NCBI RefSeq assembly: GCF_006345805.1
Contig: NC_043000.1
Coordinates: 161,138,001-161,202,000, forward strand
Reading direction: 5' to 3'
DNA length: 64,000 nucleotides
Source: Octopus sinensis
Lineage: Eukaryota
Below the pieces are notes generated by a model. That model had not been told where the DNA came from. It searched no databases and worked only from the letters and a program-made list of their open reading frames with translations. Positions 10,085 to 63,022 of the stretch are shown here, one piece after another; position 1 is the stretch's first letter; each line of letters starts with the position of its first letter. The translations under genes and the position numbers were made by a program.

Positions 10085-10790
10085 TAACGCCTCAAGTTCG
10101 AATCACTTAAGCACTTCAAAGTACAGCCGATACATGGGAAAAAATTTAGTAAATTTATTTGGTCTTTAAAGGAACACAATAAACAATTTGGTTTGGAATG
10201 GACTATTCTATCTCGATGCTTTGCATATTATAAAGATGAATCCTTTTGTCCGCTCTGTACCGATGAAAAGTATCTCATTCTGTTCTCACGTTTAAAGAAC
10301 GCGTTTATCGTTGCAAACCTTGGCAAAAACATACCTTTAGTTCCTATAAGTAGTTTGTACCAATCTATAAAATTTGATTTTTGACTGTCTTCTTACATTT
10401 CATTTCCACTACATATATCTATTTACACGACTTTAAGCTGTATTTCCACTCATCTATCGCACTATATTTCTCGACTATTAATTTTCTATTAATTTCTTTC
10501 CTTTTCCTCCTTCTCATTCTCTAAGTTGCCTTTGAAGTTAAATCTGTTGACGGTTTATTTTTTAAAAAACAACAACTTGCGAGCCTTCCTTCCATCATAT
10601 ACGCGGTAATCACATTAGGTTAAAATGTCTTGTTGATGCGTTTTGTTTCTCTTTTTCCTTCACGAGTTGATTACATTGTTTTACATCATTTTATTTCCTT
10701 CGGAATGATACCAATAGTTTCTTCGAAACATACGTCGGAAGTATAAAGATTTGAATAACACCTGCGTTTAACTCCATTTCTTAATTTATC
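10085..10790 (+). mobile_element. Penelope-like element 3' fragment (GIY-YIG C-terminus and terminal repeat)
   Basis: Translation SKFIWSLKEHNKQFGLEWTILSRCFAYY...CPLCTDEKYLIL fits the LSKYIWxLK...W.I...CxLCxxEK motif of Penelope-like endonucleases; followed by a degenerate hammerhead at ~10695-10741. Confidence 0.75.
10695..10741 (+). ncRNA. Degenerate minimal hammerhead ribozyme
   Basis: cGAAAC-atac-GTC-ggaag 3' half is intact and ggaa can pair with ttcc; the CUGAnGA box has decayed (cggaatga). Confidence 0.5.
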
Positions 10791-15321: not shown

Positions 15322-15439
15322 TGTGTGTGTGTGTGTGTGTGTGCCTGTGTCTGTGTCTGTGTGTACATATGCATAGCCATATGCTATTTGAAACAACGAC
15401 ACATGCAAACATAAATTCACAAACGTATAAAAGTACTTC

Positions 15440-17095
15440 TAGTGTCTAATGCGGTACCACTTTTCGGAATTATGCGAGACAAGTTACACAAAACCCATTT
15501 ACCCAAAGGTAAGAACAGGGAGGAAATGGAAAGCAGAAAAACCAGTAAACAGCGCGATCGGAAAGCTAAGGCATGTCGATATAGTCAGAGCGACGCAAGA
15601 AGCAAGATCCAGTCGAGGGTTGCACAATTTCAAACCATTTTGCACGAGCCATGTCAAAGAGATGAAAGTGGCAGTGGTACACGAATTGAGAAAGGTGGAA
15701 AAAGAAAGACAAAATGTTCATTTGGTACAATGTAGTCAACAGTGACAGTGCCTGATGGGAGGAATATGTGGTCAGTTGCAGAATCTCATTGAAGGAACTT
15801 TAGGCTTGGGAACAAGCAATAACATCCTTCATGATCAAGTCTACTTCCGACGGTTTGCCTTCCCTGGCCAATTTCGTCCGGTGGAACATACAGACGACTG
15901 AAGAATGTAGATCTGGAGAGAAAGCGACAGTGAGACATGTTCTGTCAGACAACAGGCTAGCACTAGACACGTATACATGGCGACACAATCAAGTCCTCGG
16001 TGTTACAAACGCAGCAGTCAAGGAGAAGATCGAGGAAATAATAGGGGAGAATACCCGAAAGTGGTAAAGCGCGGAAAGATATACATCCAGGAGGAGGGAA
16101 CAGGACATAAGACCAGGCCTTCATAAAAATATATATATACACGACAGACGAAAGACGGAAGGGTTAGTGGGAGCTGGCTGTGGATTTGGGAAGACTGTTA
16201 ATATGTCCACGCATAAAAACAACAAAAAGGCTGTACTTTATCCTATGGAATACAGAACGAGAAATTGGAGCTTAGCTAGAGCTGACAGTGCCATCGGAAG
16301 TGAATATCGCTAATGCAGAGCAACGGATTCAGGGGAGGTATGAGAAATTAATCGAAGAGTGCAGGGAACAGGGGTGGACTGTCGAGTATTAACACCTGAC
16401 AGTGGAGGCTAGAGACTTCTTTGAAGGAGAACTGGCGACGATAATTAAAATTTTGCGTTTTCCAGTTCAGAGCTGAGAAAAGTAATGGGGACGATACAGG
16501 AGGCCATCGACAAAGCCAGCTTCTATATATGGCTGAAACGAGAAGACCCGAAATGGCTCGAAATCCATAACATGCCAACTGGGAAATAGCGACGCTAGGT
16601 GAGGCCGGCTGACATCTAAAAAGTGTAGCTGCTTGACAGGTGGGACGAGGGAACTATATCGTTCAATGCGTGTCCTTGTCCCAGATAGTTCGAAGGCTTT
16701 TACCACCAGACAGCTAGTCGGCTCTAGCTGCTGGAGCTGAAACTAACATGACTCTGTTGGAATGTAGGTTGAGTGAGGCGCGGGGCAAAACTATGCGCCC
16801 TTCCCCTCAATTGGTCAGTTGAAGCTTAGATTGTGTCACATGCCAGTTTGCATGCGCTGGCTGCTGGAGTCTACCGGCGAGTATTTAGAGGGTAATCTGT
16901 CAGGGTGGTCATTCGCCCGCTTACAGAAAAAATGCTCTCAACGCTAGAACTGAAGACACCTCTGACAGGTGGAGCCCCGCCAGGTCAATAACGGTAGAGG
17001 AGAAGGGGCCGAAACAGAACGTGGTTTCTCCTAATGATGCCCTAAGCCACTGGATCCTATAAAGGAGTTGTTGAAGTAGCGAACCACGAAGCGTG
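15440..17095 (+). mobile_element. HERO-clade RLE non-LTR retrotransposon, 5'-truncated and decayed
   Basis: Motifs KVRTGRKWKAE...LRHVDIV; IKSTSDGLPSLANFVRW...HVLS...YTWRHNQVL; ILWNTE...LELTVPSE...RYEKLIEECREQGW...VEARDF; KASFYIWLKRE. ORF ends near 16570, then a GC-richer 3' UTR. Confidence 0.8.
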
Positions 17096-17529
17096 GTTGG
17101 AATTCATAATGGTTTGGATTCTAAAATTATCGAAATAATTCTAATCAATATTAAACTTACCCGATATTCATATGAATGTCATCATTCTTATTTTACAAAG
17201 ATACGTACACATATATACACATACACAGGAATATACATTAATACACACATGCACGCACACTCACTCTTACGTATTTAGTGGCTAATCAAAAATGAAACAA
17301 ATATGTACATTAAAGTCACAAAGTATACAGTATTAAAACGTATATATACACACGTACATACATAACACATACATACATTCATACATTCATACATTCATAC
17401 ATACATACATACATACATGCATAACATAAATACATACATAACATACGTGTCCGACAATGGCTTAAGTGGCCGAAATTTCGAAGTTACTCTCAGAAATGTT
17501 CTTGTTTAAGAATAATAAATATATATCAT

Positions 17530-17945
17530 ATATATAACAAAGTGGAGTTGTAGGGTACCGCACGAGTGGAATTATATACGAAAGAAGGTTTGAAAATGCA
17601 ATTTTAAAAGATGTTTATTTACTTTACCGGTTTCACTCTTTGGAAAAAGATTGTCATAAATAGCATGTAGAAGTTTGGTTGCGTTAATTATTGGTTGTTA
17701 CAAATTGCTACATTACATATGTCCTTAACATGTCCTTGTTACCAAAGACGGTATATATGTAATGTAGCAATTTGTAACAACCAATAATTAACGTAACCAA
17801 ACTTCTACATGTTACTTTTGACCATCTTTTTCCAAAGACTGAAACCGGTAAAGTAAATAAACATCTTTTAAAATTGCATTTTCAAACCTTCTTTCGTATA
17901 TAATTCCACTCGTGCGGTACCCTACAACTCCACTTTGTTATATAT
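17530..17945. repeat. Long inverted repeat (~190-bp arms, ~33-nt spacer) of a Penelope-type terminal repeat; each arm has a decayed hammerhead
   Basis: 17530-17720 is the reverse complement of 17753-17945 with about 6 mismatches; the arms contain GAAAC-CG-GTA and stem II tcttt/aaaga. Confidence 0.9.
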
Positions 17946-17951
17946 ATATAT

Positions 17952-24566: not shown

Positions 24567-24631
<65 letters not shown>
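24360..24631 (+). mobile_element. R4/Dong-type LINE 3' end with (AAT)n tail
   Basis: Decayed C-terminus IALG...LGTASIIRRVI, short UTR, (AAT)n tail 24563-24631, then (AAG)n to ~24678. Confidence 0.7.
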
Positions 24632-24661
<30 letters not shown>

Positions 24662-24689
24662 AAGAAGAAGAAGAAGAAATGAAATCATT

Positions 24690-25417
24690 GATATTTGTAC
24701 CTCTGGTGAACAGAGCTTTTATACGGGGTTTAAAAAAGCAGACCGAAAGAATCTCAATGAGTGGGTCAGGAAGATAAATGCTATCGCCGGTGATATCAGG
24801 ACTGGCAGCATCACAGACACCAACAATCTGATAAATGCAATCTCGATCTTTATAGGCCAGAATTTAGATTTGAAAGCCAAAGGTATATGTCAACATAACA
24901 TGAAGGGACCGTGGTGGGAAAGGAGAATAGCGCTGTCTATTGACGAGACCAAATATCATGTTAATATTCTGGAACGGAAAAAACGGATTGAAGCTCAACG
25001 GGAGAAATATGTTGAGCCAGAGGGGAAGTATAGGGTGAGGAGAAAGGGAATCAATGTTGTGATTAAGGAATTAAAAGGGAGGTTGAAAGCTAAAGCACAT
25101 ACACTAAAGAGATATGAACAGAGAATTGAGCAATGCAGATTAAACAGACTTTTCAAGACAGTGCCATTTATTTTTGAAGACAGCATAAGAAGGCATCAAG
25201 AGGAATGTAAAGGAAGTTGGAATAATGTTCCCAGTAAAAACTCTTACAAAAGATTTTCCTCCTTGGCTCCACCAGAATAATCAGGAAAGTATCAGATAGT
25301 TGAAAAAAACAGATAGCATGGTACCGTAGTCTGCAGGCAGCAAGCCCGCTATGCATGCGACGCTCCAGGAATTCCTGCAAAACCTGTGATAAAAAGAAAT
25401 AATTGTAAGAGAAATAA

Positions 25418-25461: not shown

Positions 25462-26559
25462 ATAAATTTAATAATTATGAGGATAACAAGTGTTTGATAT
25501 ATAAGATTATATAAGATCATGTATGACTGAAAGTAAAAGAAATATTACCGTAGAAACGCTTGCAAAACCACTCAAAATTTGGATGTTATTTAAACTCAGG
25601 AAAAAAAAAACACAGTAAACACATTACATGTTTCAATCCTCTCGTCTCATTGTATGTTACTAAAATTCTCTCAAACATTCTTTGAAATACTTTGAAAAAA
25701 CAAAGAAGAATAAGACTTTCCACCATTACTTAGATACCAGTAAATCTTTGATAATTTTAATATTAAAAAAAATCTACAGTCTTTAAGTTGATATATAAAA
25801 TTACTGTATTATTTTAATCTTTTTACTAAAGCTTTTATTAATCACGAAAGAAATAAAAATACAGTAAGAAGCATTAATATTAGCATTATTTACAACTTCA
25901 TGGGAAACTACTCTAAATATCTCTAAAACACTAAATAAGTGAAATAATTTAAGGATATACTTTTTGCAAAATAAACATTCTTCTTACCGAAATGAATAAT
26001 ATTAAACTACAACAGATAACAATAACAACAATATCATAATTAAAAGGGCAAATTGCGAGCATATACCTCCGCCTATTGAACATCCGCCTATAGTACAATT
26101 ATCACAGAAAATTATAATACCATCACATCATGTATTTACTCAGCTTTGGAAGGTGATAAGGTGATTAGTACTTTTATTGCATATAGTGCACTATCAACAA
26201 TTAATGATTCTAGTGTTAATTTTCGTACCTATAAATGTAGAGTACATTACGTGTGTTTCATTAGCGAGAACTGCTTAATGAAATATATACTATAAAAATA
26301 TTTTCTATAGTACTTCATAAATATAGTATTGCAAAAGGTTCTTACTCATAAAGGCATTAAATAATATATGCAGCGTACTTTTAAGTATTGATGTGTGTCT
26401 CATTGTTATCAATTATATCTCAGCTTGCAAATCGAGTGTAAATGTTTAACATTACATATAGTTCTTTATTCCTTATAATTTATTTGAAAAAAAGTGACTT
26501 TCACGTAAAAAATTACTTTAAAATTAGAAATGCTGAATTTCTAAATGTCTCAAAGAGAC

Positions 26560-26745
26560 ATGAGCGGTGGTGGAGCGTAGGGTGGTTGGATACTGTCAAC
26601 ACAACGTGACAGTCCGTCAGGGAATTACATCACCGCTGTTTAGCCCTAGGAAGCATCGACGCTTCCTGTCGGCTTTGACACATTTCCTGTGTCCTTATAT
26701 TTGCGAAGGGGAGGCAAGCACCCCCGCCAGCTAGGATTAGCACCT
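26560..26745 (-). repeat. Structured repeat motif, copy 1 (probable retroelement 5' region)
   Basis: Homologous to 27010-27115 (tttagcccYagga..catcg...ggcttt.gacac...tatttgcRaagggRaggc), with three hairpins. Confidence 0.65.
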
Positions 26746-27009
26746 TTAAAATATTTTTACATATCTATGCTTAGAAATATATGTATATAACTATATTTAT
26801 ATATACAGGATGCGGTGAATAAATTATCGCTTAAATTATCAAAAATTGAAAATAATATTAACATCTCATTTTAACATATATTTACCAAAATTACATAAAA
26901 ATATCTTGAAATATTATTAAATCACAGAGCGAGATGTAAACATTAACCGCTCGACAATGTAAAGTATAAAAGCCATCTCAATATAGCTAACCACAAAGTG
27001 GGGTGTTAC

Positions 27010-27115
27010 TGTAGCTTTTTAGCCCCAGGAGATCATCGTCTCCAGCTGGCTTTAGACACCCTTTCAGTGCCCTTGAAGTATTTGCAAAGGGAGGCCATCC
27101 CTTCCTCGCAAGCCT
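27010..27115 (-). repeat. Structured repeat motif, copy 2, directly downstream of a hammerhead
   Basis: Hairpins aggga/tccct, ggcac/gtgtc and ggaga/tctcc occupy the same positions as in copy 1. Confidence 0.65.
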
Positions 27116-27125
27116 GAGTGATACG

Positions 27126-27166
27126 CACGGACCGGTTTCGAGATTATTGTCTCTTATCAACGGGTG
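27126..27166 (-). ncRNA. Minimal type I hammerhead with U3-A8 variant core
   Basis: Reverse complement: cacccg-TTGATAA-gaga-caataa-tctc-GAAAC-cg-GTC-cgtg. Perfect stem II and palindromic ACCGGT; stem I is partly eroded. Confidence 0.7.
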
Positions 27167-28344
27167 GTAACCACCAGGTCACGATGGAAGACAAGGCCTG
27201 CTTTGCAAATTTATATATTTGCGTAAATTTATTCAATAAAGTGTCATTGGCTTCAACCACGGCCTCCAGAAGTCTTCGGAATCTCCTGCAACTCTTCTGG
27301 TCAGTGTTCTTGATTAGGTTGGTGAATGCTGTCATAATCCTTGCCTTCAGTTCATCTTTGGTGTTACAAGGAGTTTTGATGGTCTCTCACTCAACTGCGC
27401 CTCATACATAATAACCAAGGGGTTGCAATCTGTGGACTTAGGTGGTCATATGTGAGGGGTGATGTGATCGTAGAAATTGTCTGACAGCCATGACTGGGTC
27501 CTCCTACTTGTGTAGCATGGAGCAGAGTCTTGTTGCCAGATGTAGATTTTTCCAGCAGCCGCCCTCTTGACCCAAGGCATCACTACCTCGTCCAGTCACT
27601 CGATATAGACCACCGTTTTGTGTCTGAGGCCGTGTGGGGAGATGGATGGAGACATAACCTCGCCATCACTAATGATCACTCCTAACACCATGGTGTTGAC
27701 AAGATGTTTGATTTTTATCACTATCGGTAGATGTCTTGGGGACACGGCAAGCCTACGGTTGTTCTGTGTTTACCATCAGATCCTGGTAGAAGTTTTTTCT
27801 CGTCTGAGAAAAACAAAAGCAAGTTCGGTTGAACGGATTCTTGAGTTTGTTCAAAAGCTTTGTAGCACGATGTTTCCTCTTATCGTTAATGGATTGGGTT
27901 AAAGATTGACCCCTTCTCATCTTATATGAGGATATCGAATGTCTTCATGCACTATCTGCCTATAAAAACTCAGACGCTCCCATATCCATAGCGATGGACC
28001 TGACTGACTTGGAAGGGTGGTTGTCAATCATGGCCTGGATCGCACCAACAAATACAGGAGTTTTTTTTTTTTATCAGAACGATCAGTGAGTTTTCTGAGT
28101 TGCCGTACCTTCGCAATCACCATTAGGCTCATCCAACTCTTTCCAAATCCTCTGCACTATCCTCAAATTGACACCCAAACACCCTGAAATGTTCGTATTG
28201 GAATGCGTTATGGTGCTGTGTTTTTTTTCACAGACAGTGCCCAACTCACCCTACTATACAATGTAGTCGACAAAACCAAAAACAAACTTTTGCATGTGCA
28301 AAATTGAAAATATAAAATGGCGACAATTTAAGCATTGCATACCG

Positions 28345-28652: not shown

Positions 28653-29233
28653 ATGGACCATAGAATCTCTGTTGGTGGACGTAGAGAACTCAGTTATTCG
28701 ATTAATGGAATTACTTGCCTATTGAAATAACTCGTACGTGGCTAAGCATTCCACAAGAACGTGCACCCGTAATAAGTCTTAGAGAGAATAAATGTGAAAA
28801 TTTGTGACAAGATTATAGTTTTCAGTTACACGTTTAATCGACCAGACTGGTTTCAATATAGTCTAGGGGTCAACCGGAGGTCATTGAAATTGTTATACTC
28901 AATTTCCCACGCAGAGAGATTGAGCGTCTGAGCTGGTAGCTGGGAAGCAAACTTCGTAAATATTCGACCATACTGTCTCTTTGTATACATACGTGTGTGT
29001 GTGTGTGTATGTGTGTGTATTTATGCGTATAGGTAGGTATGTAGGTAGGTGTGATTGTATGTGTGTGTGTGTATATATATATATACGCACAGGCACATGT
29101 ACATAGATATACATATGTATGTACATATATATGTATTATGTATGTATGTATGTATTTACGTCATACACACGCGAATATGCACACACACATACACACATAC
29201 TCATACACATGCGCACGCACATATGCGTATATA

Positions 29234-30500
29234 TCGGGGTTGGACAAAATAATGGAAACAACATAGAATTTCAAACAAGTTTATTTTAATATTGGGCAGG
29301 ACCGCCTTTGGCAGTAATTACTGCTTGAATTCTACGGCGTATGGACTCGCACAAAGTTTGAATTGTTTCCAAAGGAATATTTGTCCATTCCTCAGCTAAA
29401 ACAGTCTCTAGTTCTTGTAGTGATGATGGTGGAGGATTTCGACTGCTTACTTGTTTTTCTAAAATGCACCATAATTGTTCAATAATAATGAGATCTGGGG
29501 ACTGTGGTGGCCAGATAAGATTTTCAACTTTACTAGAATGTTCCTCGTGCCATTCAGTAACACTTTTAGCTGTGTGAATTGGCGCATTATCATCCTGAAA
29601 GATTGCGTTTCACTCCGGAAACAGTCCCGCAACTATAGGATGAATTTGATCAGATAAAATGCATAAATAGTCTTCACTCTTTATTCTGCCACGAAGGGAA
29701 GCATATTGGGCCGGCGGATTTCCAAGATATACCCCACCCCAGATCATTACAGATCCTTCTCCATGTTTAACAGTTGGAAGAATGCAGTCTGAGTTAAAAG
29801 CTTCTTTGACTGTTTCCACACGTATACTCGGCCCGTGGTCGGAAATAAGGTAAAGGATGACTCGTCCAAGAAAATAACATTCTTCTACCGCTCTAGGGAC
29901 GAGTTCTGTAGGGTTTTATTCCACTCTAAACGCATTGCAACGTTTGTTTTTGAAAGTAGTGGTTTTCTGATTTAAGTCCTCCCATGAAATCTGGCTCTGT
30001 GCAACTCCCGGCAAACAGTTTTTGTGGAAACTGGGTTCTCGAGGTAGTTATTAAGCTCTGTAGTAATTTTGGGAGCTGTACTTTCGTGATCCTTTCTAAT
30101 AATTCGTGTAAGAGTCCGATAGTCCCTATCTGAAAGTTTTGGGTTTCTTCCGGAGTTTTGTTTCGACGATGAAGTTTTTCCCTCTTTCTCAAAGGCTGTT
30201 ATTACTTTCGAGACAGTACTTCTTGATACACCAAACATTTCGGCTGTTGTCGTTACGGTAGCACCTGCCATGCGAGTACCAAAAATTTGACGTCGTTGAA
30301 TGTCCGATAGAACTGCCATTTTAATGAATTGTAATTACCTTATTCTGATGATATCTGAAAAGAAACATCAATTTTAGCAAAGCATATTAAGAAACACTAA
30401 TAATAAATCCCAAAATAAACCTGATTTTGACGGTTTTATAGATATTTCAAAATTATGATGCTATGATGCTAGGTGTTTCCATTATTTTGTCGAACCCCTG
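29234..30500 (-). mobile_element. Tc1-type DD36E (Incomer-like) transposon, full length, decayed
   Basis: ~28-bp TIRs ggggttggacaaaataatggaaaca at both ends, with TA flanks. Confidence 0.9.
29286..30319 (-). pseudogene. DD36E transposase pseudogene
   Basis: N-terminal HTH MAVLSDIQRRQIFG...GRNPKLSDRD; PTVKHGEGSVMIWG; FQDDNAPIHTAK...WPPQSPDLIIIE (36 residues between D and E by my count); ends AKGGPAQY*. Contains frameshifts and stops. Confidence 0.85.
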
Positions 30501-33599: not shown

Positions 33600-34990
33600 C
33601 GCTAACAATAATATGAATTGTTTCTGTTTTTAGGCCCTACATATGAGTTACTTCTATTTCCAAATCTTTGTATTTTGAAAGTTTCTCCGCTTCTTTCAGA
33701 GAAACGTTGTCATCTGCTGGTATTGATAAATCAATTTTTTTCTTGGGGATTTCTAACAACTATATCCGGTCTATTAGCCTTTATTTATATGTGTGTATTG
33801 GCATATTCAAGAGTATGGTTGCTTTATCATTTGCTGTGACCTTTTCTGGGGTGTACCTATACCATTTTTTTCAGTTAATATTCCATAATGTTGTCATAGC
33901 TTCCAGAGTATATAAGTTCCAACTTTGTTATATTTATGAATATATTCCTTCTTAACCAGATCTGGAAAGCTAGAAACAATATGATTTACTGTTTCTTCTC
34001 CGCCACCACATATTCTGCAGTTACTTGTATTTCTCTTTATTATGAGTTTTTGTTGATTTGTGGTGGGAAAGACTTTCATCTTGTACTGCAATTAAAAAGC
34101 CTTGCTTTGAGACCTGAGCTTCTCATTCATCGGTGAGATTTTGGTTTGTGTATTTCTTTTCTGTTTAGTGTAACAGAATATTTGCCATGAAGGGGATATT
34201 TTGTCATCGTTTTATCATGATCCGGTGCAGTTCCAGCTTTTGTTTGGATTCCAGCCGTTTTACAACCTTTGTTGTTTCTTCTTCTTCTTCTTCTTCTTCT
34301 TCTTCTTCTTCTTTTCTTCTTCTTCTTCTTCTTCTTCTTCTTCTTCTTCTTCTTCTTCTTCTTCTTCTTCTTCTTCTTCTTCTTCTTCTTCTTCTTCTTC
34401 TTCTTCTTCTTCTTCTTCTTCTTCTTCTTCTTCTTCTTCTTCTTCATAGTTGTTTGCCTCTATGATTTCTGTTTTGCATTTTTCCAGCTTCTGAAAGACA
34501 GAAAACAGTTTTGCTTGTTTTTCTTGTCTTTTGCGGCTATTTTTATCAGTTTTCCTTGCTTCTGAAGTAGGTTTTTCTGTAATACTACGGTGGTCATTTT
34601 GTAATATTTTCCTAGCTGTATAAAGCGTCTACCACCTTCTATATGTTGTATATATAACCTTTCAATGTCAGAGTTTGGATGGTGCATTCTGAATCTTGTC
34701 ATTAGTTTTCTTATTTTCCTGTCTATTTTGATTAGTTCATTTAGAGTCCAGTTAAGAATATTGTAGCTGTAACTTATAACTTAGACGGCTAGAGTGTCAA
34801 TACCTATTATCTTGAATTTCACATTGAGCTCTGTTTTCAGTATTAATCTAACTCGTCTATAGTATTCTTTTATTATCTTCTCTTTCATTTGTGAGTGTTG
34901 TATCGTATCTAGCTCATTGATTCCTAAGTATTTGTATGTCTGGCTTTGGTCGGATTCTCTTATTTCATTTGCTTATTTTATTCCCTAAAT
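33600..34990 (-). mobile_element. R4/Dong-type LINE family A, 3' portion, interrupted by (TTC)n
   Basis: YKYLG...MHHPNSDIERLYI...GGR; PLHGKY; CRICGGGEETVNHIVS...KKEYIH; RPDIVVR...IDLSIPADDNVSLKE. Confidence 0.9.
34276..34445. repeat. (TTC)n, about 56 units
   Basis: Directly visible, inside the LINE ORF remnant. Confidence 0.95.
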
Positions 34991-34994
34991 CATT

Positions 34995-35279
34995 GTTGTT
35001 TGAGGATGATGAACAAAACACCCATGTTTCCAAATGTGAATTATCTAAACCCCAAAGAATTTCTTTCAATACAGAGCTATGAGGCTCCCCCACTATTTCT
35101 GCTTGTGATCAGAGATGCATATATCGTCACCCACTGAGGGGCATGCTCAACTAGTTAAGGTCAAGCAACTGACAAGCAAATCTGTAGCCCATCTTTTATC
35201 CCAAGACAAATCAATGTACATGATAACACTCCAATAAGAAGCAATGAGAGACACTATCTAGTACTGCATCAGGGTATTT
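34995..35279 (-). mobile_element. 558-bp element copy a (5' half only, fused to the LINE ORF)
   Basis: Homologous to 35540-35861 with small deletions. Confidence 0.9.
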
Positions 35280-35303
35280 ATTATTATTATTATTATTATT
35301 ATT

Positions 35304-35861
35304 GAGTGAGAGAGCAGTTCATGCCATCAAAGTGACACTGGGGTAAAATATACGAAGCCCAATATACCCATCATGACTACCCGTCTGATAAAGGTACACC
35401 AGGCACATGCATCACAACCATATGTGCGCGACATGGTGATCTCATATCAAGATAAACAGCACATGACCTTGCAGGTGGGGCCCAGTTAGAGTTTTCTTCA
35501 GGTTGAGTTACCCATCCCGCTCAAACGGTCCCTGAATAAGGGTTGTTTAAGGATGTTGAAAGAACCACCCATGTTTCCAGAGGTGAACTATTCAAACCCC
35601 AAAGAATCCCTCTCAACACATGGCTATGATGCTCCCCCACTACTTCTGCTCGTGATCAGAGATGCACATATCGTCAGCCATTAAGGGACATGCTCAACTG
35701 GTTAAGGTCAAACAACTGACAAGCAAATCTGTGGTATTGAGCAGAATATTTGCTGTAGCCCATCTTTTATACCAAGACAAAACAATGTGCATGATAACAC
35801 TTCCAATCAGTTAAGATCAGAAGCCATGAGAGCCACTGCCTGGTACTGCATCAGGGCATTT
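35304..35861 (-). mobile_element. 558-bp non-autonomous element copy b (full length)
   Basis: Near-identical to 37989-38546; flanked by (ATT)n on both sides. Confidence 0.92.
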
Positions 35862-35863
35862 TA

Positions 35864-35920
<57 letters not shown>

Positions 35921-37251: not shown

Positions 37252-37954
37252 TAGTTTTATTTTTATAGCGTGCTTTCACTTCACTACCGAGCACAGCTCT
37301 GTGTGCCTTAGGTATGTGCTGTGATTTGTTGTGTTGCTCTGATGGTTATTGTATGGAAAGTGTTCTGTGTAGGATGTGTGCAGTGCCTAGTAGTGCAATT
37401 TTCTGTATGTTATATGTGTTTGTAAGTCCTGGTGTTTTTGTTATGTATTTGTCTGAATATTTTTTTATCATGCCTAATGCACCTACTATGATAGGAATTG
37501 TTTCTGTTTTCAGATTCCACATTCTGGTTACCTCTATTTCCAGGTCTTTGTATTTTGAGAGTTTCTCCATTTCTTTTAGAGACACGTTGTCATCTGCCGG
37601 TATTGATACATCAATTAGAAAGCATTTTTTTTCTTCATGATCTCTGACAACTATATCTGGTCTGTTGGCCTTAATTTCTCTATCTGTGTGTATCGGCATA
37701 TCCCAGAGTATGGTTGCTTTCTCGTTTTCTGTGACCTTTTCTGGTGTGTGCCTATACTATCTTTTTTCTGTTGTTATTCCATAATGTTGGCATAGCTTCC
37801 AGTGTATGTAGGTTCCAACTCTGTCATGTCTGTGAATATATTCCTTCTTAGCCAGGACTGGGCAGCCAGAGATAATATGATTTATTGTTTCTTGTCCATC
37901 TCCACATATTCTGCAGTTACTTGTTATATTTCTTTTCATTACATGTTTTTGGTA

Positions 37955-37955: not shown

Positions 37956-37988
<33 letters not shown>

Positions 37989-38546
37989 GAGTGAGAGAGC
38001 AGTTCATGCCATCAAAGTGACACTGGGGTAAAATATACGAAGCCCAATATACCCATCATGACTACCCGTCTGATAAAGGTACACCAGGCACATGCATCAC
38101 AACCATATGTGCGCGACATGGTGATCTCATATCAAGATAAACAGCACATGACCTTGCAGGTGGAGCCCAGTTAGAATTTTCTTCAGGTTGAGTAGCCCAT
38201 CCTGCTCAAAAGGTCCCTGAATAAGGGTTGCTTTAGGATGTTGAACGAAACAACTATGTTTCCAGAGGTGAATTATTCAAACCCCAAAGAATCCCTCTCA
38301 ACACATGGCTATGATGCTCCCCCACTACTTCTGCTCGTGATCAGAGATGCACATATCGTCAGCCACTAAGGGACATGCTCAACTGGTTAAGGCCAAACAA
38401 CTGACAAGCAAATCTGTGGTATTGAGCAGAATATTTGCTGTAGCCCATCTTTTATACCAAGACAAAACAATGTACATGATAACACTTCCAATCAGTTAAG
38501 ATCAGAAGCCATGAGAGCCACTGCCTGGTACTGCATCAGGGCATTT
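37989..38546 (-). mobile_element. 558-bp non-autonomous element copy d (full length)
   Basis: Near-identical to copy b; (ATT)n on both flanks. Confidence 0.92.
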
Positions 38547-54893: not shown

Positions 54894-55353
54894 GAGTGAG
54901 AGAGTAATGTCACTGGGGAATAAGTAGCATGCATAGCTCTCTCACTGGGGTACAAATATACAAATCCCAACATACCCATCATGACTACACGTCAACTAAG
55001 GTTACACCTAGCACACAAATCCTAACCGTACGTGAGCTATATGGTGATTTCTTGTCAAGATAAACAGCGCCTGACCTTGCAGTAGGGGCCCAGTTAAAAT
55101 TTTCTTCACGTTGGTTAGATAAAGGTCCCTGAATAAATTTGTTTAAGGATGATGACCAAAATACCTAGGTTCCCAGAGGCGGATTATTCAAACTGCACAG
55201 AATTCACCTTAACATATGGCTATGATGCTCCCCCCCCCATTATTCCTACTCGTGATCAGAAATGCACATATTGTCAGTTCTTAGAGATATGCTCAACTGG
55301 CTAAGGTCAAGCAACTGACAAGCAAATCTGTGGCACTGAGCAGAATATTGGCT
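54894..55353 (-). mobile_element. 558-bp element copy f (5'-truncated, diverged)
   Basis: Homologous to 37989-38439. Confidence 0.88.
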
Positions 55354-55369
55354 ATTATTATTTTTGTTT

Positions 55370-55908
55370 GAGGGAGTAGTGCATGCTATCACAGTGTCAC
55401 TGGGGTAAAATATTCCAAGCCCAGTATACCCATCATGGCTACCGGTCTGATGAGGGTACATCAGGCACATGCATCACAACTATATGTACACAGCATGGTG
55501 ATCTCATATGAAGATAAACAGTGCATGACCTTGCAGGTGGGGCCCAGTTAGGATTTTCTTCTTGTCGAGTAGCCCATCCCACTCAAATGGTCCCTGAATA
55601 AGGATTTTTTAAGGATGTTGAACGAAACACTTATGTTTCCAAAAGTGAATTATTCAAAGCCGAAAGAATTCCTCTCAACACGACTGTGATGTTCCTCGCT
55701 ACTTCTGTTCGTGATCAGGGATCCGCATATCGTCAGCCACTAATGGATATCCTCAACTGGTTTAGGTCAAACAAACGGCAAGCAAATCTGTGCCATTGAG
55801 GAGAATTTTTGTCATAGCCCACCTTTTATACCAAGACAAAACATGTACGTGATAACACTCCCAATTAGTTAAGATTATAAACCATGAGAGTCAGATACCT
55901 AGTCTTGC
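55370..55908 (-). mobile_element. 558-bp element copy g (nearly full length, diverged)
   Basis: Homologous to copy d over nearly its whole length. Confidence 0.88.
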
Positions 55909-57799: not shown

Positions 57800-58049
<250 letters not shown>

Positions 58050-58117
58050 AATAATAATAATAATAATAATAATTATTATTATTATTATTATTATTTATTA
58101 TAATAATAATAATAATA

Positions 58118-60690
58118 TAGATATGTTGATGATGAAGGGAAGCTCATGATAGGATATAGAAAGAAAATGCATGACATTTGGATGAAAACCCAGAGCTTAG
58201 ATATTAGGGAACCGACTGTGAGCAGGCAAGGATGATAATGAAAAAAGGATGGTTAACAGCATTAGAACTTGATGAGATTAGGAATAGAGTGACGATCGAA
58301 AATACAGTGAGTGATGTTGAAGTGGTTACACAGAATGGGGACGAGTTTGCAGTCAGTGATGGGGCCCAAGAGAATTTTGCTGGTATAAAGTTTGACGATG
58401 TAGAAGGACTGAGCGATGAGAAGAGAGGAATAATCGGAGATATCACTGGTATCATTCAGAAATATTTGGACATGGCAAGACATGGATTCAAGAAAGTGGA
58501 TAGAATTTGGTTCAGTGGGTGAACTCAGAACGTGGATAAAATTAAAGCAGATAATATAACTAGAACGAATAGATTGATTAAAGCTTGTATCAACTATATA
58601 GAAAGGAAAATAGGTTTCGAACTAAACCGTGAAAGAGAAAATGTAGCAAAACGACCTTGGTGGAAAAGAAAGATAAAGCAATCAATGAACGAAATACAAA
58701 ACATCGATATCGTAGTAAGAAAGAAGCATAGTGAAATCAAGAAGAAGGTGAAATATCGGGAACGGGAACGTAGATATAGAATCAAGAAAAGTGCTTAAGT
58801 GTAGAACTTGAAGAGATGAATGAAAAACTGTAGGCAAAAGCTACGAAAATTAAGGGATATGACCAAAGAATTTATAATCAATAGATTGCTCCAACAGGAT
58901 CAGAAAAGGGTTCATCAGCAGCTGAAGGGAAAGGTTAACAGCTGTGAGAAACAGGACACGGAAGAAAGTAGATTTTGGAGTAACATGTAGGATAATGGAA
59001 GAAATCATAGGAAAGATGCTGAATGGCTGAGGGAATTAAGATCCGAGAAAAATGAAGTGAAACGGAACAATATAAGAATAACAACTGAAATGGTGACCGA
59101 GCAGAATACAAAGGTTCGAAACTGAAAGGATACTGGTTGATAAATTTTCTGGCATTACATAAAAGAATAGCTGCGCAAATGGATAAAATAATCAGCAACG
59201 GGGTGGAAATCCCAACGTGGACGACGACCACATGTAAAACGGTTCATTGCCAAATGGACCCCGGTAAAGGTAATGTAGTGGATAATTCCCAGCTAATTTC
59301 CTCTCTACACTTGTTGTGGAAAATGATGACAGGAATAACATCTAATTGTGGGTACGATTTCCTGGAAATGAATGACAAACTGCCAGATGACCGAAAAGGA
59401 TGCGGGTGGAGAATCCAAGGAACGGAGAATCGACTTTTGAAAAACTGAATGGTTCTGAACGATTGCAGGAGAAAACATTTTAATCTGACTCTGGCGTAAG
59501 AAACGTTATGACATGGTCCCCCATTCCCGGATTTTAGAAAGTGTTGAGTTGGTACCGGTGTCTATAATATTTTGCATTTTATCAGATCAATGGACATTTG
59601 GAATACAGTGTTAACATTTATGGCGAAGGTTAACATCAGTAGAGGCATATTTCAGGGAATTAGTCTGTCGTTGTTTGTGATTTCTATGACATGTCTCACA
59701 GAGATATTACAATAAGTGACAACGGGGTACACCTTGAAAAATGGAGAAAAGTTAAATCACCCTGTTATATAGAGATGACTTAAAGATCATCAGTGATCAT
59801 TAAAGAAGGCGAAGTAGTGTCCTCTGTTAGTGTAAAATTATCCACCGACGAGAGAATCAAGGATGGTAAGATGGATAGTTATAGGATTCTGGGTGTTTTT
59901 TGGAATATGACAAAGTGAAGGGGAGTAAGATTATGGAAAGCTTTAGGCGAGAATACCCCAGAAGAACCAAATTAATTATGGAGAGTAGACTTACAAAAAA
60001 GAACACAATCAAGGTAATACATAGACTGTTTCATTAATGGGATGTGGTTCAAATATTGTTAATTGGAAGAAGAACGAGCTTGGAGAAATGGATAGAAAAA
60101 ACAGGAAAGTGATAACAATAACAAGGAATTGCGCCCTAAAAGTGATATCGATAGACTGTATTTGCCTAGATACGTAGGGAGAAGTCTCATAGGATACAAG
60201 ATCTGTCTTGTCAATGAGGAAAGCAGTCTGATTGAACATTTGTTTGTCACTGACATAAATAGCAACACTATACCTGGTGAAAATATGACACTCAAAAACA
60301 TTAAATAAATATGATGGAGAACAAAGATTCTACAACTAGGAAATGAAACCGACGCATGAGCAATACTTCAAAAGAGAAATTGAAAGAAAAGACGTGATTA
60401 ACATCTGGAGGTGGTTAAGGGAAAGTGATCTGCAAGGATGCAATCAGGCATTGATATGCAACGCCTAAGGAACAAGCTCTGAGAGCTTATTACTCTAAGT
60501 TCCAAAGAGTGAAACGCCCCTTTGTAGGATGTGTGGCAGCAAGAACGAAACAATCTCATAGATTGTGAGTGATTATAGCAAACCGGCACAAAAGGAATAC
60601 AAAAGGAGGCATGGTAACGTAGTTTAGTTTGTTCAATGGAGATTGTGTTAGAAGTACAATCCTAGAAGAATATGGAAATAGTACAAACAT
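58118..60690 (+). mobile_element. Long decayed R4/Dong-type LINE (N-terminus, RT, CCHC)
   Basis: GWLTALELDEIR; NITRTNRLIKA; RPWWKRKI; LHKRIAAQM...IPTW; RGIFQGISLS; KSDIDRLYLPR; AQKEYKRRH. Many frameshifts. Confidence 0.88.
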
Positions 60691-60699
60691 GATACAGCT

Positions 60700-61911
60700 C
60701 GAACAATCCTTCGTTTCAGCAATAATAGGCCCTGAAACGTACCTTCATATAACAAGTGATGTGCTCTTACGAACTGTACTGAAGCATGAAGATTCCAAGC
60801 AAGCTTCACTCACGAAGGAATTTTTTAAATCTCTTAGTCTACAAGTTAACAATAAGAATAACCAAAGACACCCAAATACTGACAGACCAGCCTTTGCTTC
60901 TCCTGATTTTGAAACTAACAATCAGAAAGACCAACGAAATCCAAATAGTGACAAACTTATCACACAATGCGAAATCATCAAACAAAAAGAAGGCTTGTAT
61001 GAATAACGTCGAAGAAAAGTGGAAAGGTAAACTGCTGCATGGATGATACCCTTACTGCCTGTCCAAGCGAGATACTGATCAAAATCTAACACACTAATGG
61101 CTACAGGGGACAGGTCTGAAAGTGGAAACAGAATGTTTTGTTATTGCAGCACAGGATCAGAGCTTACCTACAAGAAACTACTATACAAACGTCCTTAACG
61201 ATGGATGTGCCCCCTCGCTGAGAATTTGCAGAAACTTCGCGGAAACAATTGATCATGTGGTTTCTGGTTACCCTGTCCTCGCTGAAAATGAGTACCTCAT
61301 AAGACATGACAAACTAGGGCTGTACATTCACTGGAATGTTTGTAAAAACTACAAAATTAAATGTCACGATATGTGGTACAGGTAACATCCAGAGGATGTA
61401 GTAAATGGTGAGGACATCACCATTCCTTGGAACTTCCCAATACAAACAGACAAACAAATTGACTCCAATCGACCAGACATTGTGATCAAGGGCTACAACA
61501 GAGGGAATTGTCTATTAATAAATATGTCTGTCCCACAAGATCAAATTGTCTCATAAAAGAATACGAAAATCTTTCTCACTATAAACATCTGCAAATTGAT
61601 ATCACCAAAATGTGTAAGCATAGCATTACGATAACACCAGTAGTAATTGGTGCGTAGGGAAGGATAAACAATGGAGCTGAGAAGTATATTAAGCAATTCC
61701 CCGGTGATTCCAGTCTCCATGAACTACAAAAGATAACCTTGATGGATACAGTCCATATACTATGGAAAACACTCTGCACCTAAAATGGAATAAATGTGGT
61801 GATAAATTTAGCATGCATAACAAAACAAAAGTGCCCTTCTTACTCTGGGCCTCCGGAGAATGCCCGGTACTAAGGGAGCTGAAATAAAGTTGTTATGAAA
61901 AGAAACCATGA

Positions 61912-62367: not shown

Positions 62368-62405
<38 letters not shown>
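62163..62405. repeat. Compound (AAT)/(AAC)/(ATT)/(CAT) microsatellite
   Basis: Directly visible. Confidence 0.95.
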
Positions 62406-62407
<2 letters not shown>

Positions 62408-62960
62408 GCACTAATACAGTACCAGACAGTGGCTCCCATGGCTTCTGATCATAACTGATTGGAAGTGTTATCATGTACATTGTTTTGTCTTGGTATAAAA
62501 GATGGGCTACAGCAAATATTCTGCTCAATACCACAGATTTGCTTGTCAGTTGTTTGACCTTAACCAGTTGACCATGTTCTTTAGTGGCTGACGATATGTG
62601 CATCTCTGATCACAAGCAAAAGTAGTTGGGGTGCATCATAGCCGTGTGTTGAAAGATATTTTTGGAAGTTTGGATAATTCACCTTTAGAAACATGGATGG
62701 CTCGTTCAACATCCTTAAACAATCCTTATTCAGGGACTTTTTGAGGGAGTTGGGCTATTCGAACTAAAGAAAATTTTCACTGTGCTCTACATGCAAGGTC
62801 ATGCGCTGTTATCTTTATATGAGATCATTATGTCACGCACATATCGTTGTGATGCATGAGACTGGTGTACCTTTGTCAGACGGGTAGTCATGATGGGTAT
62901 ACTGGGCTTCGTATATTTTACCCCAATGTCACTTTGAGGGCATGCACTGCTCTTTCACAC
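62406..62960 (+). mobile_element. 558-bp element copy i (full length, diverged) with (AAT)n/(AAC)n tail
   Basis: Reverse complement of copy d over its full length. Confidence 0.92.
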
Positions 62961-62990
62961 AATAATAATAATAATAATAACAACAACAAT

Positions 62991-63022
<32 letters not shown>

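Follow-up and report, generated by a model that had tools for sequence, protein, structure and literature searches.

A U3-A8 hammerhead motif and a two-hairpin RNA domain in an abundant short repeat family, possibly of the animal retrozyme kind

Results and discussion

On the minus strand of the window (the whole 64-kb stretch of DNA analysed here), a hammerhead motif with an uncommon core is followed by an RNA domain that recurs at 26640-26745, and the question is what kind of element these two copies represent and whether the core is a family property or decay. Both copies belong to an abundant, high-copy dispersed repeat family. There is, in our judgement, an even chance that it is a non-coding, non-autonomous retroelement of the animal retrozyme kind. 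The window is AT-rich and is rich in microsatellites, DNA transposons and LINE fragments, and the character of its repeats suggests a cephalopod, probably an octopus. Coordinates of the features are collected in Table 1.

Table 1. Features of the two repeat copies and their surroundings
Feature	Position	Strand	Basis
Hammerhead-bearing copy, 309 nt, in the presumed maT transposon	26914..27222	-	empty-site joint; repeat scan
Second copy, 221 nt, without hammerhead core	26525..26745	-	alignment; z -2.4
9-nt direct repeat, upstream copy, likely target-site duplication with microhomology	26744..26752	-	
9-nt direct repeat, downstream copy	26516..26524	-	
Decayed DD37D DNA transposon (presumably maT-type) hosting the hammerhead copy; upper boundary approximate	26804..28260	-	translation
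Hammerhead, classical type I	27118..27175	-	Rfam HH9 alignment, E 9.3e-6
Distal stem I, UUAC/UA internal loop, and 6-nt proximal stem I (27166-27161 with 27129-27124)	within 27118..27175	-	
Core U3-U4-G5-A6-U7-A8-A9 (U3-A8 replaces C3-G8); U3=27160, A8=27155, A9=27154	27154..27160	-	sequence
Stem II, 4 bp with 6-nt loop, without extra base after A9	27140..27153	-	
GAAA (27139-27136), palindromic stem III ACCGGU (27136-27131), and C17 (27130)	27130..27139	-	
5' arm of predicted ~50-bp rod extending hammerhead stem I	27176..27210	-	helix probabilities 0.96-1.00
3' arm of rod; weakly refolds as hairpin A after the predicted cut	27080..27129	-	
Hairpin B, hammerhead copy	27054..27072	-	p 0.77-0.93; three family variants keep pairs
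Hairpin C with basal AGCC/GGCU helix, hammerhead copy; takes in most of 'gggctaaa'	27021..27051	-	
Tail of hammerhead copy: short hairpins, without ORF	26914..27020	-	fold not significant, 79/300 shuffles
Hairpins A (26725-26710), B (26693-26677), and C with basal helix (26674-26642), second copy	26642..26725	-	p 0.86-0.99
Tail of second copy	26525..26641	-	z -3.3, 1/300 shuffles

Hammerhead motif

The minus-strand hammerhead with core UUGAUAA, as given in the original prediction, was borne out. Its pattern matched once in the 64-kb window, compared with 0.00 matches expected and 0 of 100 shuffles, and a relaxed descriptor detected no further hammerhead in the window. The predicted cut lies between 27130 and 27129. 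Rfam model HH9 (RF02275) aligned over its entire length, covering the stem I internal loop, loop II and the 4-bp stem II, with 31.3 bits (E 9.3e-6), which does not reach the gathering score of 52. At gathering scores, Rfam gave no match for the hammerhead copy or the domain; at E up to 10, none of the HDV-like, twister, pistol, hairpin and IRES families was detected, HH9 being the sole match. The motif has the YUGANRA-GAAA-UH core, three helices and a Watson-Crick 3-8 pair (here U-A), and judged from its sequence it is a predicted ribozyme, built as a classical type I hammerhead whose 2-bp stem III is palindromic. Stem I of the window hammerhead contains two mismatches, one of them also present in the apparent consensus. 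As a monomer, the active fold is predicted to lie 7.8 kcal/mol above the minimum-energy fold.

Two copies and their insertion sites

The presence of two diverged copies of the downstream domain was confirmed: they are 73% identical over 86 nt, with a local score of 86 as against a maximum of 44 in 2000 shuffles, and the homology spans the cut site to just past 'gggctaaa'. These are the only two copies of the domain in the 64-kb window, the best other match of a covariance model built from both having an E value of 0.11. GC contents are 0.45 (309-nt copy) and 0.50 (221-nt copy). Pairing of the copies end to end, as a relic stem I, was tried and found not significant (449 and 743 of 3000 shuffles).

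The hammerhead copy was delimited by an empty-site joint (26913 to 27223), which all of the 4 runs contain; some 7 different letters stand at this joint, so that the 309 nt replaced about 7 nt of target. No flanking direct repeat of at least 6 nt was found by the repeat scan. Nesting in a maT transposon, formerly claimed for one copy, holds for this copy but not for the other, which lies about 60 nt outside. In the transposon frame, 37 residues separate the second catalytic D from the decayed third position, and we take this DD37D element to be maT. The insert opens with a short inverted repeat (27222-27205, minus strand) that departs from the family upstream sequence (loose end at 27197); this suggests a small 5' fold-back at the insertion of the hammerhead copy.

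The second copy begins in register with the hammerhead cut site, position 1.1 (a register picked post hoc), and in both copies six bases and then UA follow this register. Among the contigs listed, at least 4, from three runs, stop matching at 26745. This copy is flanked by a 9-nt direct repeat; among as many as 1500 random local pairs, chance gave such a repeat in 3 to 50, the count varying with the zone size. A likely target-site duplication together with a defined 3' end was seen for the 26745 copy and not for the hammerhead copy, and the 26745-26525 copy looks complete at 221 nt.

Neither copy contains an ORF of more than 21 codons, a tRNA or a Pol III box, and no ORF lies beside either. 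The longest ATG frames after the cut have 21 and 17 codons and are not common to both copies, and the translation-initiation role proposed earlier for the domain finds no support here.

Family abundance and depth profile

Of the 24 runs listed, 20 (four organisms) hold part of the insert, and 7454, 7375, 141 and 3571 contigs align to the 801-nt stretch 26500-27300, which includes the maT end. Summed contig depth, an indicator of a high-copy repeat and not a copy number, was approximately 1e6 over hairpins B-C in run X1, as against 50.7 for the exact contig spanning the insert junction. Contigs with 5-10 differences (X7 #31 and #32, X12 #16, X1 #7) join hammerhead and domain; their linkage is therefore a family trait.

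Across the cut site, the ratio of depth at 27109 to depth at 27127 was 6.8, 4.0, 4.4 and 2.0 in X1, X2, X12 and X7, respectively, and in X1 the hammerhead was about 20-fold shallower than hairpins B-C. The step is clear in just two of the three large runs; in X2, depth rises again on the upstream side of the cut (27109/27165 = 0.9). Taken together, the register of the 26745 copy, the contig ends at 26745, the 9-nt repeat and the depth step suggest that many family copies start at the cut site. The locus had been proposed to be the 5' end of a retroelement or of a short non-autonomous element. The short non-autonomous element stands, with a 5' end probably set by the hammerhead (26745 register, depth drop), but the view that the locus is merely the 5' end of something longer is not supported, as the 26745 copy looks complete.

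These data bear on a reading that we regard as very improbable: that the repeat comes from an autonomous LINE (RTE, Dong/R4 or other) as its 5' UTR, and that the domain serves translation initiation. Of all parts of a LINE, the 5' end is the one found least often among its copies, whereas the domain is the deepest part of the repeat here. No ORF follows either copy, the flanking repeat closes the 26745 copy after 221 nt, and no HDV-like or twister match was found at E up to 10. LINE fragments are nevertheless common in the window, and HDV-like and twister ribozymes at LINE 5' ends are described in passages of PMC7761336 and PMC6765202.

Searches elsewhere gave no relatives. A metagenome scan returned 10 loci, all unrelated and without BLAST match to either copy; viral contigs gave 0 matches in 3 scans; and the single match in prokaryote genomes (L011) was without stems I and II and was taken as chance. 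The searched texts hold no published description of the repeat family; Repbase, Dfam or the supplement of PMC7229834 may already hold it.

U3-A8 core as probable family consensus

Family variants were taken from public contigs at least 80% alike, 40 of the 109 variant rows being listed. Among these 40, rows occur at 27127, 27133, 27134, 27141, 27165 and 27179, some with shares near 10%, and none at 27160 or 27155. At 27165, the family letter (91% in X1) re-forms a G-C pair of stem I. A C3-G8 consensus would give majority rows like that at 27165; with none among the 40 listed of 109, U3-A8 is very probably the consensus. From sequence comparison, the core is apparently a family property and not decay, and a minority C3-G8 form could sit outside the listed rows. 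The core was thus rightly called non-canonical but is not newly unusual: natural U3-A8 cores already shown to be active in vitro are reported in part of PMC3088659, and about 1,300 U3-A8 motifs in Schistosoma in a section of PMC4209133. The hammerhead is no new ribozyme chemistry nor, on present evidence, a new RNA class.

In loop III, the family variant CG to TA (27133, 27134) preserves the palindrome. Depths at the two letters are near-equal in 3 of 4 runs (5413/5462, 1911/1949 and 1493/1496), so the letters are probably linked, as one subfamily keeping the palindrome. Alternatively, two-sided CpG decay would yield the same letters.

The type of hammerhead also bears on a second reading, which we consider unlikely, namely that the repeat is the pseudo-LTR 3' end of a Penelope-like element, most copies being 5'-truncated remnants and the domain a terminal non-coding region. 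The Cercyon Penelope-like elements of Schistosoma mansoni, as described in part of PMC4209133, share with the present repeat the U3-A8 core, a palindromic helix III and an occurrence mostly as lone dispersed, truncated motifs. Retrozymes may moreover derive from pseudo-LTRs, according to passages of 10.64898/2026.07.22.740005, and the depth here drops towards the 5' side. Cercyon hammerheads are, however, of the minimal type, in which A9 is followed by an additional base, helix II is longer and loop 1 is poorly defined (sections of PMC4209133), whereas a classical 4-bp helix II and a stem I internal loop are found here and no ORF lies beside either copy in the window; the minimal traits (extra base after A9, long helix II, no loop-1 contact) are all absent. 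No ORF starts within 216 nt after the cut. Comparison of the upstream arm with the 3' region (10385-10790) of a putative Penelope fragment at 10088-10790 gave no match (326/2000 shuffles).

Downstream domain, rod and tails

The pairs of hairpins B and C and of the basal AGCC/GGCU helix have probabilities of 0.67-0.99, and 0 of 1000 column shuffles gave a shared fold as good. In the two-copy consensus fold of 17 pairs, 3 are changed on both sides, 1 on one side and 0 are broken; two sequences give no covariation statistic, and the shuffle cannot separate current selection from an inherited palindrome. Of the 40 listed variant rows, 28 were tested against the fold of the window copy, the other 12 belonging to the transposon (11) or to X7 alone (1). 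Of these 28, 14 were unpaired, 9 keep a pair and 5 break one, most of them being transitions, which by themselves favour G-U. In the B-C region, pairing is preserved in 4 of 4 paired variants, among them a double change from U-G to A-U. Hairpins B and C are a well supported conserved core of the predicted structure.

For hairpin A, the probability was 0.86 in the 26745 copy, 0.00 in the whole hammerhead insert and 0.25-0.39 after the cut, and as a shared fold it was not significant (434/1000 shuffles as good). Of the three hairpins said to be kept, B and C are therefore retained but A is not. The imperfect enclosing gctggc/gccagc stem was not recovered (mean pair probability 0.00-0.06). The terminal gggctaaa is present but is mostly a helix strand, gggct pairing with the 3' strand of the claimed enclosing stem. 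The domain has no Rfam match at E up to 10, in line with its description as an undescribed structured RNA.

The strongest structural feature is the rod, in which 27210-27176 pairs with 27116-27080 (27210-27080, z -6.0, 0/300 shuffles) and which, by prediction, absorbs the hairpin A region before the cut.

Beyond the core, the tails of the two copies show no similarity to each other (1472/2000 shuffles as good), and other types of tail follow the core in loose contig ends, among the 24 listed of 1122. Family letters at 26985 and 26970 (the latter by eye) improve one hairpin of the hammerhead-copy tail. The second tail has a long-range stem (26637-26631/26569-26563) and hairpins at 26613-26592 and 26561-26545, and closes with an 8-bp inverted repeat followed by a T4 run. 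On the minus strand, the tail hairpin at 26959-26990 is as deep as the core in four runs and the deepest part of all in X7 and X12; with several different sequences after it, this hairpin may be a second shared module.

A shared core with unrelated tails resembles the module exchange of SINEs (parts of PMC4758252), which raises a third reading: a linear, ribozyme-headed SINE in which the hammerhead occupies the usual place of a tRNA head and serves to trim the 5' end without a tandem or circular stage, B-C is the central domain, and swappable tails ending in a hairpin and U run recruit a LINE RT. We hold this possible but doubtful. With its flanking duplication, the 26745 copy appears to be whole between the cut site and the closing hairpin and T4, the depth climbs from hammerhead to core, and neither a tRNA nor a Pol III box match was found; Pol III A and B boxes, as in tRNA-, 5S- or 7SL-derived heads, are absent from the sequence up to 27222. 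Hammerhead-bearing SINE-like elements are known in schistosomes (sections of PMC6765202). The absence of tandem copies from the window, of go-back joints from those listed and of hammerhead halves at the copy ends, together with the shallow hammerhead, fits this reading better than a retrozyme. Yet in a scheme that lacks tandem or circular RNA it is difficult to account for the conservation of the stem III palindrome and for a 50-bp rod formed with an upstream arm that is then discarded; moreover, 5' cutting deprives a copy of its ribozyme, and no tail matches a LINE 3' end within the 64-kb window. Its fuller form is, we think, rather improbable: a superfamily of thousands to tens of thousands of copies, in which a hammerhead head would set the 5' end of a linear RNA, the undescribed two-hairpin core, kept throughout the subfamilies, would be recognised by RT or ligase and tails would be swapped, possibly making up part of the unclassified short repeats of the host lineage.

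Retrozyme-type reading and proposed mechanism

Passages of PMC7229834 assign animal classical type I hammerheads to non-LTR retrozymes of 170-400 nt with GC under 50%, target duplications over 4 bp, and a weak palindromic helix III with cleavage as dimers; parts of 10.64898/2026.07.22.740005 describe dispersed retrozyme monomers and a Penelope origin of retrozymes. In the present repeat the hammerhead is of the classical type I, its architecture including loop 1 and loop 2, and the unit is non-coding, within 150-450 nt, of GC up to about 50% and strongly self-paired (z -3.6). Lengths of 309 and 221 nt, the 9-nt flanking repeat, the rod (z -6.0) and the high copy fit a retrozyme as well. Against it, no tandem copy occurs in the 64-kb window and no go-back joint between the insert ends was seen among the 15 listed of 112 joints; neither copy ends in the 5' half of the hammerhead, contrary to the expectation for a unit-length monomer; the hammerhead is far shallower than the B-C core in X1, unlike in a tandem repeat; and 5 of the 14 paired family variants break the predicted pair of the window copy. 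That the repeat works like a retrozyme, with putative tandem units and circles, is about as probable as not; we do not file it as a member of that class.

In the retrozyme-type reading, master copies, likely tandem, would be transcribed, and two hammerheads, joined by their palindromic stem III, would cleave after C17. A 2-bp palindrome in this stem is a sign of such paired-hammerhead cleavage, which a lone 5' trimming ribozyme leaves unexplained, and since dimer cleavage requires two hammerheads, tandem masters are suggested. The long rod could hold both sides of the cut together for ligation of the unit into a circle. The RT of an autonomous partner, for which a Penelope-like element is the published candidate, would start on the U-rich tail, primed at an AT-rich target, and proceed in the 5' direction of the RNA. 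If the template had been cut, synthesis would end at the cut site and yield a copy like 26745-26525, flanked by a duplication; if it was uncut or had been ligated again, synthesis would continue past that site, through the hammerhead and into the arm of the rod, yielding a copy like 26914-27222. Hairpins B and C would be a recognition or stability core of the RNA and not a translation element.

Relation to known systems

With animal non-LTR retrozymes, as far as they are described in parts of PMC7229834 and 10.64898/2026.07.22.740005, the repeat shares a classical type I hammerhead whose helix III is weak and palindromic, a non-coding self-paired unit of 200-400 nt with GC up to 50%, a longer target duplication and dispersed monomers. 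It differs in its U3-A8 core, in ends formed by a tail hairpin and not by a hammerhead half, and in a shared core with unrelated tails; it is known from dispersed single copies, and in the portions of the texts searched the family is not reported for the lineage. The Sm-alpha SINE-like elements of Schistosoma are likewise short hammerhead repeats, and the Rfam HH9 model aligns at full length, but the score of 31.3 bits is below the cut-off of 52, the core is U3-A8, and a Pol III box or tRNA head is lacking. The CORE, V, Deu, Nin and Ceph SINE superfamilies (described in part of PMC4758252) also have a conserved hairpin-forming core and exchangeable tails, whereas the present repeat is without a tRNA head, the comparison being one of descriptions and not of domain consensus sequences. 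Those supplementary files of PMC4758252 and PMC4824008 that were searched hold no match to the motif, and the supplement of PMC13282606 does not mention ribozymes.

If confirmed, this would be a very abundant hammerhead retroelement family with U3-A8 in a classical tertiary-contact architecture, of a kind that searches built on C3-G8 would miss. If copies do start at, or run through, the cut site, cleavage in vivo could be read from genomic fossils, which could also tell a linear from a circular RNA template, an open point in retrozyme and Penelope biology. A passage of PMC13282606 reports 893 unclassified, recently active SINE families in O. vulgaris; if the host is an octopus, the repeat may explain some of these.

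Other features of the window

The plus-strand fragment 10088-10790 resembles, in its motif, the C-terminal GIY-YIG end of a Penelope-like element. Its part 10088-10381 had no Pfam match, 0 of 28 homologue candidates scored, and the atlas lead was just 0.75. A T-rich region follows the GIY-YIG-like fragment, with a possible decayed hammerhead near 10700-10745.

A decayed LINE with restriction-like endonuclease motifs, presumably HERO-like, occupies 15400-17100 (plus strand). Its end (17046-17100) has a weak likeness to the hammerhead-copy tail (E 0.91) and 13 letters in common with one loose end; the tail match at 17046-17097 was left as chance. Further LINE fragments at 24600-25280, 34460-34780, 37269-37756 and 58200-61400 are, from their translations, assumed to be Dong/R4-like. 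A fairly intact Tc1-like transposon remnant lies at 29230-30500 (minus strand; DDE_3, E 8.8e-11; HTH_Tnp_Tc3_2). A near-perfect long hairpin at 17528-17947 has 193-nt arms that are 97% complementary and 34 nt apart. Finally, a second dispersed short repeat family of about 600 nt, with 78-97% identity, was observed at 34982-35893, 37957-38544, 55353-55843, 57900-58079 and 62372-62992.
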